A stretch of 64,000 nucleotides of DNA from a virus (lineage: Duplodnaviria; Caudoviricetes). Every line of letters begins with the position of its first letter. The stretch's first letter is position 1. The notes under the pieces were generated by a model. That model made no database searches. It was not told the DNA's origin and saw nothing but the letters and a program-made list of their open reading frames with translations. The stretch covers positions 1,624 to 65,623 of IMG/VR virus record IMGVR_UViG_3300011793_000004; one strand, 5' to 3'. This document shows positions 49,147 through 56,932 of this stretch, in pieces. Both the position numbers and the translations under genes were made by a program.

Positions 49147-50307
49147 ATGAATCCCAGCCACCAGATACTGGTGGGCGACTCCCTGGAATTGCTTCGGCAG
49201 ATGCCAGAACGGTCTGTCCACACCTGCGTCACCAGCCCGCCCTATTACGGCCTGCGCGACTACGGACTTTCCCCAACGGACTGGCCTGCGATGGAGTTCA
49301 ACCCAATGCCAGGACTCCCCACTACCTCGATCCCTTCCATGCTCTGCTGTCTCGGTATGGAACAGGATCCCTGGGCGTTCATCGCCCACATGGTGGCGAT
49401 CTTTCGCGAGGTGCGCCGGGTACTCCGAGACGACGGAACCTGCTGGGTGAACATGGGCGACAGTTATGCGTCAGTTGCTGGCGGATATGCACCCAGTGGC
49501 TCAAAGGGGAAGCACGACATCGTGTCGAGCGCCACCCGCGGTGCCGTGCTGCATGGTCGCCGCCGAAATCCACCAAGCGGCCTGAAGCACAAGGACCTGA
49601 TGGGCATTCCATGGCGCCTCGCCTTCGCATTGCAGGCCGATGGCTGGTATCTGCGCCAGGACATCATCTGGCACAAGCCAAACCCTATGCCCGAATCGAC
49701 CCGAGACCGCTGCACCAAAGCGCACGAATACCTGTTCCTGCTCAGCAAGTCCCGGAAGTACTACTTCAACCAAGCTGCCATCGCAGAACCACTTGCCCCC
49801 GCCAGCGTTGAACGCCTGTCCCAGGAAAACTGGGAAGACCAGAAGGGCAGCGAGCGCGTGCCAGGCAAGACCAACGGAGCCATGAAGGCTGTCGGCGGCA
49901 GTAGACGAAACAGCTTTGCCAGGGAGACGAAGTACTCCGCTGGCGAGCACGGCCAGAAAGGGCAGCATCGCCCTGACCGTCCCAACATCGACTACAGCGA
50001 GACGCGAAACAAGCGCAGCGTCTGGTCTGTGCCCACAGTCGGGTTCAAGGGCGCCCACTTCGCAACCTTCCCTCCGAACCTTATCCGCCCCTGCATCCTC
50101 GCCGGTGCACCGCGTGGCGGCATGGTACTCGACCCGTTCGGCGGCGCCGGTACCACCGCCCTCGTGGCGATGCAGGAAGGTCGCCGCTCGATCCTCTGCG
50201 AACTCAACCCCGAATACGCCGCCCTCGCCCGCGCCAGGCTCGACGCCGCCTGGCTGAACGGCGACTCGCAGCTCGACGTATTCCTCGATCAGGAACCCGC
50301 CGCATGA
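49147..50307 (+). CDS. Orphan N4-C/N6-A DNA methyltransferase, beta class
   Basis: VTSPPYY motif IV before LDPFGGAGTT motif I; HFATFP. Confidence 0.93.
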   Translation: MNPSHQILVGDSLELLRQMPERSVHTCVTSPPYYGLRDYGLSPTDWPAMEFNPMPGLPTTSIPSMLCCLGMEQDPWAFIAHMVAIFREVRRVLRDDGTCWVNMGDSYASVAGGYAPSGSKGKHDIVSSATRGAVLHGRRRNPPSGLKHKDLMGIPWRLAFALQADGWYLRQDIIWHKPNPMPESTRDRCTKAHEYLFLLSKSRKYYFNQAAIAEPLAPASVERLSQENWEDQKGSERVPGKTNGAMKAVGGSRRNSFARETKYSAGEHGQKGQHRPDRPNIDYSETRNKRSVWSVPTVGFKGAHFATFPPNLIRPCILAGAPRGGMVLDPFGGAGTTALVAMQEGRRSILCELNPEYAALARARLDAAWLNGDSQLDVFLDQEPAA

Positions 50308-52367
50308 CGTCACCAGCGCCCCACCACTTCCGCACCCAATACGCCCTCCCCCTCAACGCCCAGGACGAAGAGATCAACGTCGACCTCTTCGCCGGCGGCG
50401 GTGGCGCCAGCACTGGCATCGAGATGGGCCTGGGCCGCCCGGTGCACATCGCCATCAACCACAACCCAGCGGCGATCAGCATGCACCAGGCCAACCACCC
50501 CGGCGCGCTGCACCTGCAAACGGACGTGTGGGAGGTGGACCCGCTCACCGTGCTCGCCGGCCGGCACATCGGCTGGTTCCACGCCTCGCCGGACTGCACC
50601 CATCACAGCCAGGCCGCGGGCGGCCAGCCGCGCAAGAAGGAAATCCGCGACCTCTCGTGGGTGGTGATCAAGTGGGCCGGCATCGGCAAGCCGCGCATCA
50701 TCAGCCTCGAGAACGTGAAGCAGATCCGCCAGTGGGGGCCGCTGATCGCCAAGCGCTGCAAGAAGACCGGCCGCGTCCTGCGCCTGGACGGCAGCGTGGC
50801 GGCGCCGGGCGAGCGCGTGCCGCGGCACGAACAGTTCCTGGTGCCGGACCCGAAGCGCAAGGGCACCACCTGGCGCAAGTTCCTCGGCTGCCTGGAGGCG
50901 CTCGGCTACATCGTCGACCACCGAGTGCTGAAGGCCTGCGACTTCGGCGCCCCCACCAGCCGCGAGCGGCTCTTCCTCGTCGCCCGGCGCGACGGCCACC
51001 CCATCGTCTGGCCGGCGGCCACCCATGCCGCCAAGCCGGCGAAGGGCCAACAGCCCTACCGCACCGCCGCCGAGTGCATCGACTGGTCCGTGCCGAGCCA
51101 GAGCATTTTCAACCGCAAGAAGCCGCTGGCCGAAGCCACCGAGCGCCGCGTGCACAAGGGCATCGTGCGCGAGGTGCTGGAGAAGAAGCAGCCCTTCATC
51201 GTGCCGATCGCCAACTGGTCGAGGGACGCCCTGCATCCGGCCGATCAGCCGCTAAACACCGTAACCGCCTGGCCGCGCGGCGGTTCGTTCGCGGTCGTCG
51301 CCCCGCAGCTGGTGAAATTCCGCTTCGACGAGGGCGGCCTGCCCCTGGACCAGCCTCTGCCCACCATCACCTCCGGCGGCAACTGCGCACGCCCGGCCGG
51401 CGCCGCGCATGCGATGGGTGTTGCCGGCGCCGTGATGATCAACGCCGCCCACGGCGAAGGGCGCCCGGATGGAGTGAAACGCTGGGGGAGCGGAAGCCGA
51501 TCGGTTGAAGCGCCCCTGCCAACCGTAACCGCCGGCGGCAGCGGCGGGCATGCGGTCGCCAGCCCGATCCTGGTAGGCGTCTGCGGCCGCGCCGGGCAAA
51601 CCGAACCGCGCGCCGGCGATGAGCCGATGTACACCATCACCAGCAAGGGCGACGCTGCCGTGGCCACGGCATTCCTGGCCCAGGCGAACGGCGGGTTCAA
51701 CACCACCCACTCCAAGCCGCTGGATGACCCGATGACCACCGTCACCAACACCGGCAGCCAGCAGCAGCTTGTCACCGCCAACCTGGTGCACCTGCGCGGC
51801 AACTGCGACGCTCGGTCGGTGGGAGATCCGCTGCACACCGTCAGCGCCCGCGGCCAGCACCATGCGGCGGTCACCGCCTTCCTGTCCCGCCAGTTCGGCG
51901 CCAGCATAGGCCAGGGCCTGGAAGAACCGGCGCCGACCATCACCGCCGGCAGTGGCGGAAAGTCCGCGCTGGTCGAATTGCAGCTGTCACCCGAGGCCCA
52001 GGAAGGCGCGCTGCGCTGCGCGGCGTTCCTGATGAAGTACTTCGGGAAAGGAGAAGGCGTGATCGGCATGGGCGAGACCGTGTCGACGTTAACCACCAAG
52101 GACCGCCTGGCCCTGGTCACGGTGTGGATCGGCGGAGACCCCTACGTGATCGTCGACATCCACCTGCGCATGCTCCAGCCCCACGAGCTCTACGCCGCCC
52201 AGGGCTTCCCGCCGAACTACATCATCACCCACGGGCACGACGGTCGGCGCTTCACGAAGTCCGAGCAGGTGTTCATGTGCGGCAACAGCGTCAGTCCGCC
52301 GCCGATGGCCGCGATCGCCCGGGCGAATGATCCGTGGAGAGAGGTTCGGCAGCCGTTGGCGGCGTAA
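50304..52367 (+). CDS. Orphan C5-cytosine DNA methyltransferase with repetitive variable region
   Basis: DLFAGGGGAS, ASPDCTHHS, ENV, PTSRERLF, CGNSVSPP. Confidence 0.93.
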   Translation: MTSPAPHHFRTQYALPLNAQDEEINVDLFAGGGGASTGIEMGLGRPVHIAINHNPAAISMHQANHPGALHLQTDVWEVDPLTVLAGRHIGWFHASPDCTHHSQAAGGQPRKKEIRDLSWVVIKWAGIGKPRIISLENVKQIRQWGPLIAKRCKKTGRVLRLDGSVAAPGERVPRHEQFLVPDPKRKGTTWRKFLGCLEALGYIVDHRVLKACDFGAPTSRERLFLVARRDGHPIVWPAATHAAKPAKGQQPYRTAAECIDWSVPSQSIFNRKKPLAEATERRVHKGIVREVLEKKQPFIVPIANWSRDALHPADQPLNTVTAWPRGGSFAVVAPQLVKFRFDEGGLPLDQPLPTITSGGNCARPAGAAHAMGVAGAVMINAAHGEGRPDGVKRWGSGSRSVEAPLPTVTAGGSGGHAVASPILVGVCGRAGQTEPRAGDEPMYTITSKGDAAVATAFLAQANGGFNTTHSKPLDDPMTTVTNTGSQQQLVTANLVHLRGNCDARSVGDPLHTVSARGQHHAAVTAFLSRQFGASIGQGLEEPAPTITAGSGGKSALVELQLSPEAQEGALRCAAFLMKYFGKGEGVIGMGETVSTLTTKDRLALVTVWIGGDPYVIVDIHLRMLQPHELYAAQGFPPNYIITHGHDGRRFTKSEQVFMCGNSVSPPPMAAIARANDPWREVRQPLAA

Positions 52368-52495
52368 GGGAGGTATGGGTGGATAAGCGGAGTGTTATCC
52401 ACCCTACTCGCTGCGCGCGTGGGTGCTGACCCGAAGCAATGCGAGCTGAGGTTGGAGTAGCGATAGGGAATGACCTAGGCATCCAATGTGTGGGC

Positions 52496-53503
52496 CTATA
52501 AGCTATTAATTTCACATTCCTTCTTATTGCCAACGTTTGCCAATGTTTTGAAACCTAATGGCGACTCCCAACACATTAACCTTAAAGCTGGGTTGCCCTC
52601 TGTGATATGCATTCGCCATGCGCTATGGTCATCTTTAACCCTCTGCTTTCCCGAGCCCGCCGAGGTCTCAAATGGACTGACCTGGCATTTAGGTACTCCG
52701 GCTACATATCCGGTCATGATTGCAAAACAAACGTTTGAGAACTTTTGACCTGGATAACACTGGTGGTCCAATAAGGATTGAACAAACCCTTTGCCGAGTG
52801 CAAAACAGTTAGTTCTAAATTTCATTTCCGAGCTATGGCTCCTTAAGACCTGCAATGCGCCTACGTAGATAGCCCGGGTGATCTCAGCCTCAGAACGTGC
52901 ACTAGCATATAGCGCACTCGCATCTATCGCCTCCAGCAGAGCACCATACCCACTATAAACCTTCAAGTCATGATCAACATGGAAGGGCGGATGGCGAAGT
53001 TCGGGTTCGATTGCGCAAATCAGACCAGATACTTTCGCTATTTGTGACGGAATTTTTGGAAAGTGAATCAGTGCGATATCTTGCACTTCAAGATACGAAA
53101 TTAGCCCGACATGCCTTATCAAATCAGCGCATGGGCCATGACGTCTATGCGTTAGCCCAACATCAGGCAAGGGTGCGAATGTTTCCCACTCGACAATGAC
53201 ATCCTCAAATCCCGAGAACTCTTCTACCAGCTGCAAGATTGAGTTAATCATCCTAGCTATATCCTTTGCTGAATAGGCATCCTCGCCAATTTTCGACAGG
53301 TTATTTTTATAGATCTTCTCGCTGGGGTACATTCCAAGCTCGGCCAATTTGCGTGGTATTTCATTCTCCAATAAAAAACATCCACACCCGCCCTGCACAT
53401 CCTTACGGATCATCAGAAGATCCTCTATATAATCTTCTATCAATTCAATAGGGCAAAATGCAGGAGACATGAAATATTCGGCGGTGAGTACAGCATGCAT
53501 CAT
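52496..53503 (-). CDS. Putative defence effector with C-terminal RelE/ParE-like nuclease domain
   Basis: Starts 4 nt after the ATPase stop, SD AAGGA; C-terminal AWRMHIT...ALRLMCW...LANVGNK. Confidence 0.55.
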   Translation of the reverse strand: MMHAVLTAEYFMSPAFCPIELIEDYIEDLLMIRKDVQGGCGCFLLENEIPRKLAELGMYPSEKIYKNNLSKIGEDAYSAKDIARMINSILQLVEEFSGFEDVIVEWETFAPLPDVGLTHRRHGPCADLIRHVGLISYLEVQDIALIHFPKIPSQIAKVSGLICAIEPELRHPPFHVDHDLKVYSGYGALLEAIDASALYASARSEAEITRAIYVGALQVLRSHSSEMKFRTNCFALGKGFVQSLLDHQCYPGQKFSNVCFAIMTGYVAGVPKCQVSPFETSAGSGKQRVKDDHSAWRMHITEGNPALRLMCWESPLGFKTLANVGNKKECEINSL

Positions 53504-53507
53504 GCGT

Positions 53508-55412
53508 TCATCCTTGATTTTTCTTATCGGCACGCTTTTTCTTCGAAGCTTCCAAGAGAATGGCTTCGACCTCTCGATCAGTTTGATCAAAAAAGTCATC
53601 TGGCCAGTCTGAAATAGCTCCGTAAGTATTGATTACTACCTTTCGAAAATATGATTTTGCTTCTTTCTTTTCGATGAAGTAGATCGGTGTATTTTCGCCA
53701 AGTCCAACCTGCTTTCCTTGAACAATACGCAAGCGCAGTCTATTGATAAGATACTCGCTATGAGTTTCGACTAGGCACTGGCGATCAAACCCAGATATAG
53801 CAATAAAGAAATCACAAAGCCGTGACTGGACTTTAGGATGCAAGTGCAACTCGGGCTGTTCAAATACCAATATATCATCACGAGTTGATAACAAACTCAT
53901 TAGGACGATAGGCAGCACCTGGCTTACGCCCACCCCAACATGCGTAAGATCTTGCCACTTCTCATGCGGATTAGTCTTCACCTGCAATTCATAGCCCAAC
54001 TTTCCTTTGTCTTGGGTACGTACATCACTTACAACACCAAGATAAGAAAGCCACTCACTGCAAGCGCTTAATAGTGTTCCACGCTTTAATTTATATTCAA
54101 AGCCCCCCTCTGCATCAACAGCGGGAGAATGGTATGAAATATTTCTATACTTATTTATATGGAGAACAGCAGCAGTAAACTCACCTTTCAAACCGACGTT
54201 TGCAGGATCGATTTGTCCAATGAATGGGTACACCGCCAAAGGTTCATTGCGAAGGGGCCCAAGATATTTTATTGACCTTGAAAAATCATAGTTAAGATAA
54301 TGAGCTGCACTGTCAAAAACCTTCAATGCATATGTATCTCGTCGCCTCTCCTTGTCCACCCCTTGATACCATATATCTTGGAGATCCGCCCGATTCTTAT
54401 CCACAAACTCTATCAACGCCTTTTTAGACTTAGGGTCTAAATTATTTAGAAATTGCAACCATGTACCGAGCGTTGTAAAGTCGGACTCTATGAAGCTATC
54501 ACTGATAATTTCTTCTTTGAGAGCAAAGGTCGCATTAAGCAACTCCTGCTTGATTTGCTCTATCGTTATGTGCTCCCTCCCCATAATGGAGTACTTATTA
54601 ATAAGAACATCTTCAATTTCTTCAGGTATTTTCAAGACACGAAGAGCTTCCCCTCGCTCTCGAGATATGCGAGCCCGGACTGCCAAAAAAAAGGACTTGG
54701 GTATCTTGATACCGGATTCGTCAATGGGCTTTCCTCGGCCATGGCTGCGCTTACTCCACATACCGGTAATCATAGCCAGAATTTGCGAACTCATCTTCTT
54801 TGTATGATCATAATCAACAAGTAATGTTGAAGGTATCAATCCAAGCTTGGTACATCCCACAATCTCGTAATCAGGAAATTCTTTACTTATAGCTTCTTCT
54901 TCTGAGCTTATGAAACTGCGCACATCAAAATATGCCCCATCATTAGAATCATTATCTTGAGCAGGACTGACCTCCAAATGTTCGTTGTATTCCTCTCCGT
55001 CCTTCCCGGACAGAGAAACCGAAGCTCTCAGAAGAGCGGGATGTAAATCATCATCGCCAGATTGGATCTTATTAATCCGCCCGAACGTTAGCTCAACATC
55101 AATACTGTTAAGCCCGCTCAACCAAGGACGATGATCTCTAACCTCTACTGAAAAATTGAAGTTAATCTCATTCAGTGAGGACGAGTGATTTTTGATGTCG
55201 TCAAATGATCCTAGCCGGGTCAGATGACCGTTAAGCATCATCGAGTCTTGAGAATACCTTGAGGATAGCGTCTGGCTTAGCATCAGCAGCGCTTGGATCA
55301 GTGAACTTTTGCCGCTACTATTTGATCCGCAAAATATAGAGAATCCACCTAATATAAGTGGGACCTCATTATCGAGAGACTTGAAGTTTCTTAGCTGAAT
55401 TCCGTTAATCAT
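53508..55412 (-). CDS. ABC/OLD-type ATPase (AAA_15/AAA_21-like, DUF3696-like C-terminus)
   Basis: LRNFKS, Walker A GSNSSGKS, VGVGVSQVLP, Walker B FEQPELHLHP, VETHSEYL, C-terminal GAISDWPDDFFDQ. Confidence 0.9.
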   Translation of the reverse strand: MINGIQLRNFKSLDNEVPLILGGFSIFCGSNSSGKSSLIQALLMLSQTLSSRYSQDSMMLNGHLTRLGSFDDIKNHSSSLNEINFNFSVEVRDHRPWLSGLNSIDVELTFGRINKIQSGDDDLHPALLRASVSLSGKDGEEYNEHLEVSPAQDNDSNDGAYFDVRSFISSEEEAISKEFPDYEIVGCTKLGLIPSTLLVDYDHTKKMSSQILAMITGMWSKRSHGRGKPIDESGIKIPKSFFLAVRARISRERGEALRVLKIPEEIEDVLINKYSIMGREHITIEQIKQELLNATFALKEEIISDSFIESDFTTLGTWLQFLNNLDPKSKKALIEFVDKNRADLQDIWYQGVDKERRRDTYALKVFDSAAHYLNYDFSRSIKYLGPLRNEPLAVYPFIGQIDPANVGLKGEFTAAVLHINKYRNISYHSPAVDAEGGFEYKLKRGTLLSACSEWLSYLGVVSDVRTQDKGKLGYELQVKTNPHEKWQDLTHVGVGVSQVLPIVLMSLLSTRDDILVFEQPELHLHPKVQSRLCDFFIAISGFDRQCLVETHSEYLINRLRLRIVQGKQVGLGENTPIYFIEKKEAKSYFRKVVINTYGAISDWPDDFFDQTDREVEAILLEASKKKRADKKNQG

Positions 55413-55704
55413 TTTATACTTCCATGCATGTGTTGGATCGGATCACTGCGATACTAGCTCCATGTGCTTCCCTAGTCACCACCTGTGATGAGGGCCAAAT
55501 CGCCAATGAATTCACGCAGAGATATCGTCGTCAGCTGTGCCAAACGACGCAGTTGAGAACTCCATTGAGTGACCCAGTCTATTTGGATGCCTATCCTTAG
55601 CAAATCGCCGCAAATTCGGTGATCGGGTTTGGTCGGCCGGATTGCTCAGGTGCACAAGGCACCGCGGAAGCGTTTTTTTGTGCCTGTTGTACGGCTACGC
55701 GCTT

Positions 55705-55784
55705 CATGGGCGGAGCCGTGTGGGAGCCCTTCGAGGCTGCCGGTGCCTGAGCCCGGTCGACCAACCTACACGGTTCCGTCCACC
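55705..55784 (+). ncRNA. C4-type antisense RNA, copy 1
   Basis: ATGGGCGGAGCCGTGTGG...CTACACGGTTCCGTCCACC cloverleaf; loops complementary to 55626-55651. Confidence 0.7.
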
Positions 55785-55933
55785 AGTATCCCTCGTTGAC
55801 ACACCCTGAGCCTTCGGTCTACCTTCTCCGCGTCGCCGCAAATTCGGCGACCTGGGATTGGTCTCCCGGAAGCTAGGCGGGTACCCGCCGCTAACAAGCG
55901 GTTTTTTTGTGCCCGCAGCACGGCTGCTCGCTT

Positions 55934-56012
55934 TATGGGCGGGCCGTGTAGGGGCGCCCTCGGGCGCGCCGGACCTAGCCCGGTAGACCAACCCTGCACG
56001 GTTCCGCCCACC
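55934..56012 (+). ncRNA. C4-type antisense RNA, copy 2 (controls the antirepressor)
   Basis: Loops CCTAGC and AGACCAA complementary to 55858-55877 and to 56017-56052, which covers the ant SD. Confidence 0.78.
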
Positions 56013-56062
56013 CTGATTGGTCTCGGAGTTGGCGGAGTTCAAGTCAGCTAGGAGACACCGCG

Positions 56063-56932
56063 ATGTCGAATCCCACTCACATAGCACCATCCGCTCAACT
56101 CGTACCCGTGACCGATGGAGATATCGGTGGCGCTGTTCTGCCAATCGTTAACGCTCGAGATCTCCATACGTTCCTGGAGAATCGAGACCTCTTCGCCAAC
56201 TGGATCAAAGCGCGCGTCGAGAAGTACGGATTCGAGGAAAACCGGGACTTCCGTATCGATTTGGTAAAAACCAAAACGATACGAACATACCGCGGTGGCG
56301 AGCGAATCGGCACCTCTACCCGAACTGACTACCATCTCACCCTCGACATGGCGAAAGAGCTTTCGATGGTGGAGAACAACGCCAAAGGCCGCGAGGCGCG
56401 CCGCTACTTCATCGACATGGAGCGCCAGGCGCTGGCCGCGGCCGGCCAGCAGCCGCAGACCATCGCGGGGCAAACCATCGGCATGGACGGCTTTCACGTG
56501 CTCGGCGCGCTGGTGGCCGGCAAGCTCCGCGCCCTGCCCTCGCCCGCTCGCTCCCGAGCCCGCGCCCGCCTCTGGTCCCAGGTGCACACCGCCTTCAACG
56601 TCCGCTCCGCCCAGGACATTCCTGCCGATCAACTGGATGCCGCCCGCAACTTCGTTGCCGCGTATGCATTGGAGGGGGAATGGCTGGGCCGCGATGAGGC
56701 CGCTAATCGCAGGGAGGCAGGAGACTGGTCCAACATCGGCGCGATGATCCACTGCATCGAGCAAACCTACGCAGTGCTCGAAACCCACAAGCTCTACACC
56801 CACCTCACTGCCCTGGGCTGCGATGCCGGCGTGCTGATGCTGGGCTTGCTTTGGGACGGGCTCGGTTCGGCTGGCCACGTACGCAAGCACTGCGCGGCAC
56901 AATTGGCGTTGGGAGTGAGAGCGCCGGCCTAA
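56063..56932 (+). CDS. Antirepressor (AntA/AntB N-terminal domain)
   Basis: VNARDLHTFL...FANWIKARVEKYGFEENRDF...YHLTLDMAKELSMVE...ARRYFI. Confidence 0.9.
   Translation: MSNPTHIAPSAQLVPVTDGDIGGAVLPIVNARDLHTFLENRDLFANWIKARVEKYGFEENRDFRIDLVKTKTIRTYRGGERIGTSTRTDYHLTLDMAKELSMVENNAKGREARRYFIDMERQALAAAGQQPQTIAGQTIGMDGFHVLGALVAGKLRALPSPARSRARARLWSQVHTAFNVRSAQDIPADQLDAARNFVAAYALEGEWLGRDEAANRREAGDWSNIGAMIHCIEQTYAVLETHKLYTHLTALGCDAGVLMLGLLWDGLGSAGHVRKHCAAQLALGVRAPA

Follow-up and report, generated by a model that had tools for sequence, protein, structure and literature searches.

What does an AT-rich, two-gene cassette, lying antisense among the early genes of a GC-rich prophage, do for its carrier? 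The question is raised by IMG/VR record IMGVR_UViG_3300011793_000004, a 65.6-kb provirus (a Pseudomonas prophage whose partial DNA relatives are Pseudomonas phages), of which we analysed a stretch of 64,000 nucleotides (nt), hereafter the window. A preliminary description had taken the cassette, which encodes an ABC-type ATPase and a smaller partner protein, for a candidate undescribed anti-phage system. We find the pair to be the NsnB–NsnC core of the three-gene defence system Menshen (NsnA–NsnB–NsnC) without NsnA, its NsnB and NsnC halves being reproduced almost exactly. It is an uncatalogued, widespread relative of three-gene Menshen and is probably directed against phages.

Menshen was reported by Millman et al. 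(2022) and analysed by Li et al. (2025; PMC12065111), who read NsnA (ParB-DUF262 plus a DNA-binding domain; ParBDB) as the sensor, NsnB (an ABC ATPase plus DUF3696) as the transducer, and NsnC (a PIN-like N-terminal domain without the D-E-D-D residues, followed by a C-terminal effector, mostly BECR) as an RNase where it carries a BECR domain. In their AlphaFold3 models, the DUF3696 tail clamps the PIN-like domain of the effector, at a predicted stoichiometry of ATPase4:effector2.

The cassette stands out from its surroundings in composition and orientation. Its GC content, calculated over 500-nt segments from 52500 to 55250, is 41–47%, as compared to 63–71% in the left flank (50000–52250) and 58–68% from 55750 onward. 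Two coupled minus-strand genes fill this AT-rich block and are flanked by plus-strand genes, as the preliminary description had it. The composition of the two-gene cassette is foreign to the prophage.

The ATPase, of 634 amino acids (aa), matches the Pfam families AAA_15 (4e-25), AAA_21 (2e-17) and DUF3696 (1.5e-9), and its translation contains all the motifs previously quoted for it: GSNSSGKS, VGVGVSQVLP, FEQPELHLHP, VETHSE and GAISDWPDDFFDQ. Across 110 homologues, no change occurs in Walker A, the signature-like motif, Walker B or the H-loop, which places the protein in the SMC/Rad50/OLD branch of the ABC ATPases, and its top structural match is the SMC head entry 5h68. Among PADLOC models, Menshen NsnB scored best (3.7e-73), followed by HEC-03 (3e-49), PDC-M55 (3.5e-39) and AriA (5e-28); the NsnB match falls in two stretches and is the only one to a Menshen model. 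The protein carries GxG instead of SGG, an Arg instead of the Q-loop Gln, and a non-DE Walker B (residues 517–521, FEQPE) in which E518-Q519, invariant in the 110 homologues, replaces D-E; canonical NsnB reads IENPE (E-N) at this position. In other ABC ATPases, an E-to-Q change blocks hydrolysis. Given its E-Q Walker B, the clade of long ATPases may work as a slow switch and not as a motor.

The ATPase also carries an insertion. BLASTP against a 372-aa canonical NsnB (that of locus L043, see below) aligned the window ATPase at residues 1–73 and 377–615 only, with 29–34% identity, and ~300 residues occupy the place of ~52 in the canonical protein. With its ATPase ~260 aa longer than canonical NsnB (about 345–390 aa), the system was misleadingly termed 'minimal' at the outset. 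Within the ATPase, conservation is lowest in the insertion (column mean of 0.36–0.39 versus 0.63–0.80 in the core), which is predicted to consist of a beta-rich (~82–202) and a helical part (~203–351). The public protein collection contains only a 375-aa product of the gene (P0160; 100% identical, 59% of the open reading frame, ORF), apparently the outcome of a misplaced start, the gene being AT-rich and its record GC-rich; the frame of 634 aa is unbroken, and homologues can be aligned over its full length.

The partner gene follows 4 nt downstream, as previously stated, its ATG at 53503 coming after the TGA of the ATPase gene. Although its longest ORF (53599..52496, minus strand) would encode 367 aa, ten homologues all begin within 1–2 residues of the 335-aa start. 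The layout of the gene junction (Table 1) suggests translational coupling of the two genes. By sequence, the partner—whose translation contains AWRMHIT, ALRLMCW and LANVGNK—has no family match in Pfam, NCBIfam or PADLOC, eight of its relatives match no PADLOC model, and no Pfam family matches any of 138 members of its family; it corresponds to phrog_25609 (PHROGs; unknown function; 1e-49). An exhaustive profile search (E ≤ 1e-3) returned 698 family clusters at 50% identity, and the module is therefore common.

The fold of the partner was more informative. All-against-all structural searching of the predicted model (predicted local distance difference test, pLDDT, 94.6; predicted template modelling score, pTM, 0.90) revealed two domains, PIN-like then RelE-like, and ESM Atlas independently returned the same two folds. 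Within the PIN-like half, position D81 is acidic in 86% of 138 sequences, the other acidic candidates reach at most 54%, and strand 1 lacks an Asp; the conserved metal-binding acidic quartet (D-E-D-D) of PIN nucleases is absent, and the domain is probably an adaptor. In the C-terminal domain, R297, R308 and K327 are invariant and H299 (97%), W312 (99%) and N323 (96%) conserved across the same 138 sequences, with R297, H299, R308 and K327 sitting on sheet strands 2–4. These strands are also the site of the basic and histidine catalytic residues in RelE, YoeB and YafQ. The best structural matches of this domain are RNase members, with YafQ at the top. A RelE/BECR-like C-terminus had rightly been anticipated from the letters of the gene, and the model places a predicted RelE/YafQ fold at residues 230–331; the HNH and TOPRIM domains said to be missing are indeed absent.

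As a control, we considered two canonical three-gene Menshen loci from sampled gammaproteobacterial genomes (L043:2436-5701 and L044:2411-5363). With the same PADLOC library, the former scored 2e-122 for NsnA, 3e-116 for NsnB and 5e-52 for NsnC; the NsnC of the latter has just 249 aa. The likeness of the window's pair to Menshen extends over both proteins. The ATPase belongs to the NsnB clade by its best PADLOC match and shares with it the DUF3696 tail, GxG, the Q-loop Arg and a non-DE Walker B, with the 5h68 SMC head as the top structural match for both ATPases. The partner has the NsnC layout of an inactive PIN-like domain plus a BECR fold, with YafQ as best match, as for PB-BECR1, and the gene order, ATPase then effector, is that of NsnB then NsnC. 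By architecture, the effector is of NsnC type and the locus a Menshen relative. Unlike in Menshen, no NsnA accompanies the pair, be it in the cassette, elsewhere in the provirus or at homologous loci, and the ATPase, with ~300 variable residues inserted, is not of canonical NsnB size.

Several observations bear on the missing NsnA. DUF262/GmrSD_N (PF03235) had no match in the whole 65.6-kb provirus; control genomes gave matches. Since the ATPase start lies 178 base pairs (bp) from the neighbouring C4 region, a third gene has no room upstream, in line with the preliminary description. Elsewhere, the annotated neighbours at 13 homologous loci include no DUF262 gene, a Paracoccus genome carrying the pair lacks DUF262 matches altogether, and in a Leclercia genome with the pair the sole match is 6.3 Mb away. 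Li et al. mined via NsnA, obtaining 1,997 systems and mentioning sporadic domain loss (PMC12065111); as their mining went through NsnA, the window's pair falls outside that set.

The pairing itself is consistent. Among 18 other distinct loci examined, four of which were reached via the ATPase or the NsnB model and not via the partner, all 18 carry a long ATPase (604–664 aa) followed by a member of the partner family, usually with overlapping genes. The two-gene form for which a neighbourhood survey had been suggested is found at every locus, and the 13 loci with annotated neighbours are free of DUF262. None of ~20 shorter NsnB-like ATPases, fetched alike, has a partner of the window's family. 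The pair spans Alpha-, Beta- and Gammaproteobacteria and is sporadic, occurring in 4 of 401 sampled genomes of one family. As judged from sequence, long ATPase and partner constitute a separate, intact, co-inherited lineage.

Two contigs deviate in their gene calls. A distant partner (P0066) comes after an ATPase call of 377 aa at the edge of its contig, the ATPase being either a short NsnB or a long form that has been truncated. On the contig of P0086 (JGI 3300050821), the ATPase is called as 258 aa (N-terminal P-loop) plus 407 aa (AAA_21/DUF3696), followed by a 367-aa partner; the gene is either naturally split or frameshifted, and the locus sits in an island with ScoMcrA_N-HNH and NmeDI_C proteins.

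We also compared the pair with other systems. HEC-03 (Payne et al. 2024, bioRxiv 10.1101/2024.01.29.577857), a validated pair of ABC ATPase and VapC-like PIN protein, requires both genes for defence, sits within larger defence systems and is toxic when induced. It resembles the window's pair in joining an ABC ATPase to a PIN-domain protein, and the window ATPase matches its ATPase model. This match is confined to the C-terminal half (model positions 212–454 of 458), however, and the partner matches no HEC-03 model, has a degenerate PIN domain and adds a RelE-fold domain. HEC-03 is nonetheless the nearest validated precedent. PARIS (AriA–AriB) and Septu (PtuA–PtuB), in contrast, use TOPRIM (DUF4435) and HNH effectors, respectively, lack a DUF3696 tail and resemble the window ATPase in the ATPase core only (AriA, see above); the AriB effector domain that defines PARIS is missing from the partner, which has no Pfam match and a PIN-like plus RelE fold. 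The PADLOC candidate PDC-M55 gave a partial ATPase match, its models do not match the partner, and no description of it was found in the literature searched. As for the type II toxins RelE, YafQ and YoeB, and Cami1, the cassette differs in having no antitoxin gene and in placing the toxin fold behind a PIN-like adaptor, paired with an ATPase; by sequence, the partner belongs to no Pfam toxin family.

PADLOC, whose use had been recommended at the outset, thus found no full match to a described two-gene system, and the partner and its eight relatives stayed without any. A 2026 preprint on BECR ties Menshen effectors to a ParB–ABC module, and excerpts of the supplements of Rousset et al. (2022; PMC9122126) list DUF3696 in three-gene, DUF262-led cassettes only. 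Our literature search, which did not extend to the ABC ATPase classification of Krishnan et al. (2020), found no described DUF3696 pair lacking DUF262. The claim of an undescribed system therefore holds insofar as no named or tested system was found to match the pair, and needs amending insofar as the pair is a relative of Menshen and has a two-gene ABC ATPase plus PIN precedent in HEC-03.

Where homologous pairs reside speaks to their function. The pair occupies the gpA–portal slot of P2-like phages (L003, L017 and Klebsiella phage Kp4861-1), a position known as the P2 old/tin hotspot (Rousset et al. 2022, PMC9122126). At L012:2345-12905 it lies within a BREX-type operon, in the order 924-aa N6_N4 methylase, pair, BrxHI helicase (PADLOC E = 0) and PglZ; upstream, the locus encodes another small ATPase of the AAA_21 type as well as a protein of 169 aa. 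One homologous pair adjoins a NACHT protein. In Pseudomonas aeruginosa (L014:1-13899; also L015 and L016), the pair lies where a Pf-like filamentous prophage (Zot, DUF2523) ends; in two of these three contexts, it adjoins a 615-aa integrase, after which come genes for DUF4917, AbiJ_NTD4 and HEPN_Toprim_N. Together, these contexts are strong guilt by association for a predicted role in anti-phage defence.

Mobile contexts of this kind are also what an addiction or stabilisation module would show, that is, a RelE-fold toxin with the ATPase as antitoxin or regulator, keeping the prophage—or the P2, Pf or BREX island—in place. The fold of the effector is classic for a type II toxin, the Pfam description of AAA_21 reads 'putative AbiEii toxin, Type IV TA system' (TA, toxin–antitoxin), the pair is always on mobile elements, and induced expression of HEC-03 is toxic. 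Yet the sites are defence hotspots (P2 old/tin slot, BREX interior, NACHT neighbour), not maintenance loci, and for PARIS and HEC-03, which share the ATPase-plus-effector layout, a toxin–antitoxin reading was rejected by test or both genes were needed for defence. Addiction and defence are mutually compatible roles; as the explanation of the pair, we regard addiction as unlikely, if the best placed of the alternatives.

Next comes the view that the pair is not autonomous and that its sensor acts in trans or is encoded by a neighbouring gene, such as the two DNA methyltransferases beside the cassette in this prophage or a host ParB-like protein, making the locus a Menshen with a swapped first component. 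A DNA methyltransferase does lie within a few kb of the pair in the window, L003, L017 and L012. The upstream neighbours, however, differ entirely among loci (peroxidase, aminotransferase, relaxase, phage gpA, Pf genes), the Paracoccus genome offers no DUF262 protein, and the lineage-specific ATPase insertion of 300 aa fits an internalised function, leaving this view with small prospects.

Third, the module might serve defence by means of an effector that is no translation-arresting RNase and functions instead as a ParE-like gyrase poison or a mere binding module. The invariant R297, R308 and K327 and near-invariant H299 on strands 2–4 argue against this, as do the RNase members among the best structural matches and the reading of BECR domains in Menshen NsnC as RNases, and we consider it improbable. 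Least credible, indeed very improbable, is a degenerate Menshen, non-functional and stripped of nsnA: the sporadic domain loss mentioned by Li et al. (PMC12065111) and the public 375-aa ATPase call would agree with it, but both ORFs are intact here and at 18 other loci from Alpha-, Beta- and Gammaproteobacteria, the catalytic motifs are invariant, and long ATPase and partner co-occur as a lineage of their own.

We thus favour, and consider fairly probable, a self-contained two-gene anti-phage module that is carried by the prophage as a moron, derives from Menshen stock and has dispensed with the NsnA sensor. If the Menshen models, PARIS and Septu are a guide, ATPase oligomers would hold the effector through DUF3696 tails clamped on its PIN-like domain, the RNase being silent. 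Li et al. could give no account of the signalling from NsnA to NsnB (PMC12065111); in the NsnA-less pair, the variable ATPase insertion would take over as sensor and recognise a phage product. ATP binding or slow hydrolysis at the E-Q Walker B would then release or activate the effector, which would cut RNA—mRNA on the ribosome, or tRNA or rRNA—and stop translation. This would abort infection by a superinfecting phage and protect the lysogen population. With slightly more doubt than belief, we extend this to an autonomous 'sensor-in-the-ATPase' form of Menshen, whose insertion may sense a phage protein or nucleic acid, whose RelE-fold domain may arrest translation, and which temperate phages (P2-like, Pf-like, lambdoid) may spread against competitors.

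Some findings pull the other way. The partner profile aligned to canonical NsnC with an hhalign probability of 0.1, which counts weakly as NsnC is highly polymorphic; we infer their common descent from architecture only. Similarity to RelE, as seen in the predicted model, is at the fold level only: 0 of 138 family members match the Pfam RelE/ParE, YoeB, YafQ or Gp49 models at E ≤ 0.01, and sequence searches of the PDB with single proteins and the partner profile gave chance matches only. Foldseek with the whole partner model returned nothing at E ≤ 0.001 from the PDB or the BFVD viral models (RelE 1wmi, probability 0.75). The insertion is a candidate built-in sensor, a role that we purely infer, and a consensus scan for promoters and terminators gave none that is convincing, and no more than in shuffled sequence.

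Table 1. Positions of the cassette, its domains and motifs, and neighbouring features within the window.
Feature	Position	Strand	Remarks
634-aa ABC ATPase, NsnB (Menshen) clade, long form	53508..55412	-	including stop codon
Walker A CGSNSSGKS (residues 28-36)	55305..55331	-	invariant in 110 homologues
Variable insertion (residues 74-376), absent from canonical NsnB	54285..55193	-	BLASTP, conservation
GVGVSQ signature-like motif, Walker B FEQPE, H-loop ETHSE (residues 487-554)	53751..53954	-	invariant columns
DUF3696 C-terminal tail (residues 574-616, WPDDFFDQ)	53565..53693	-	Pfam 1.5e-9
Gene junction: AAGGA overlapping ATPase TGA stop, 4-nt spacer, ATGATG	53501..53515	-	
335-aa effector, NsnC-like architecture	52496..53503	-	including stop codon
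PIN-like N-terminal domain (residues 1-193)	52925..53503	-	no conserved acidic quartet
RelE/YafQ/YoeB-like (BECR) C-terminal domain (residues 230-331)	52511..52816	-	predicted fold
AT-rich block: cassette and short flanks	52400..55500	.	41-47% GC vs 61-71% in surrounding prophage
Two DNA methyltransferases	49147-52367	+	flank the cassette
c4-a1b1	from 55591		Rfam
C4 RNAs	55702-55787 and 55931-56015		Rfam, 65.7 and 55.4 bits
Ant-like anti-repressor	56063-56932	+	other flank of the cassette

Regarding the surroundings of the cassette, the methyltransferases on one side are a 386-aa N6/N4-type and a 687-aa C5-type enzyme, the latter with long internal insertions; methylases are also found near the pair in L003, L017, L012 and L001. 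On the other side, positions 55591-56932 hold a tandem of two C4 antisense RNA units, both with c4-a1b1/isrK-like matches ahead of them, and then the Ant-like gene. The arrangement is a P1-type immI region, borne by a lambdoid prophage of Pseudomonas and directly abutting the upstream side of the cassette. A 58-aa ORF (55424-55600, plus strand), divergent from the ATPase start and without a PHROG match, is unlikely to be a gene. Searched by megablast against the phage collection, the island and its right flank gave no match and the left flank only partial methylase matches; no flanking direct repeats marking an insertion were found around the cassette.

If active, the pair would be a compact, phage-borne defence that PADLOC v2.0.0 cannot recognise as a system, because the partner matches no model and nsnA is absent. 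An NsnA-less lineage with a variable ATPase insertion would further offer a simpler system in which to study the trigger and the control of a PIN-like/RelE effector by a DUF3696 ATPase. For the prophage itself, the cassette would, if this reading is true, be a lysogen-protecting moron beside an immI-like c4/ant switch.

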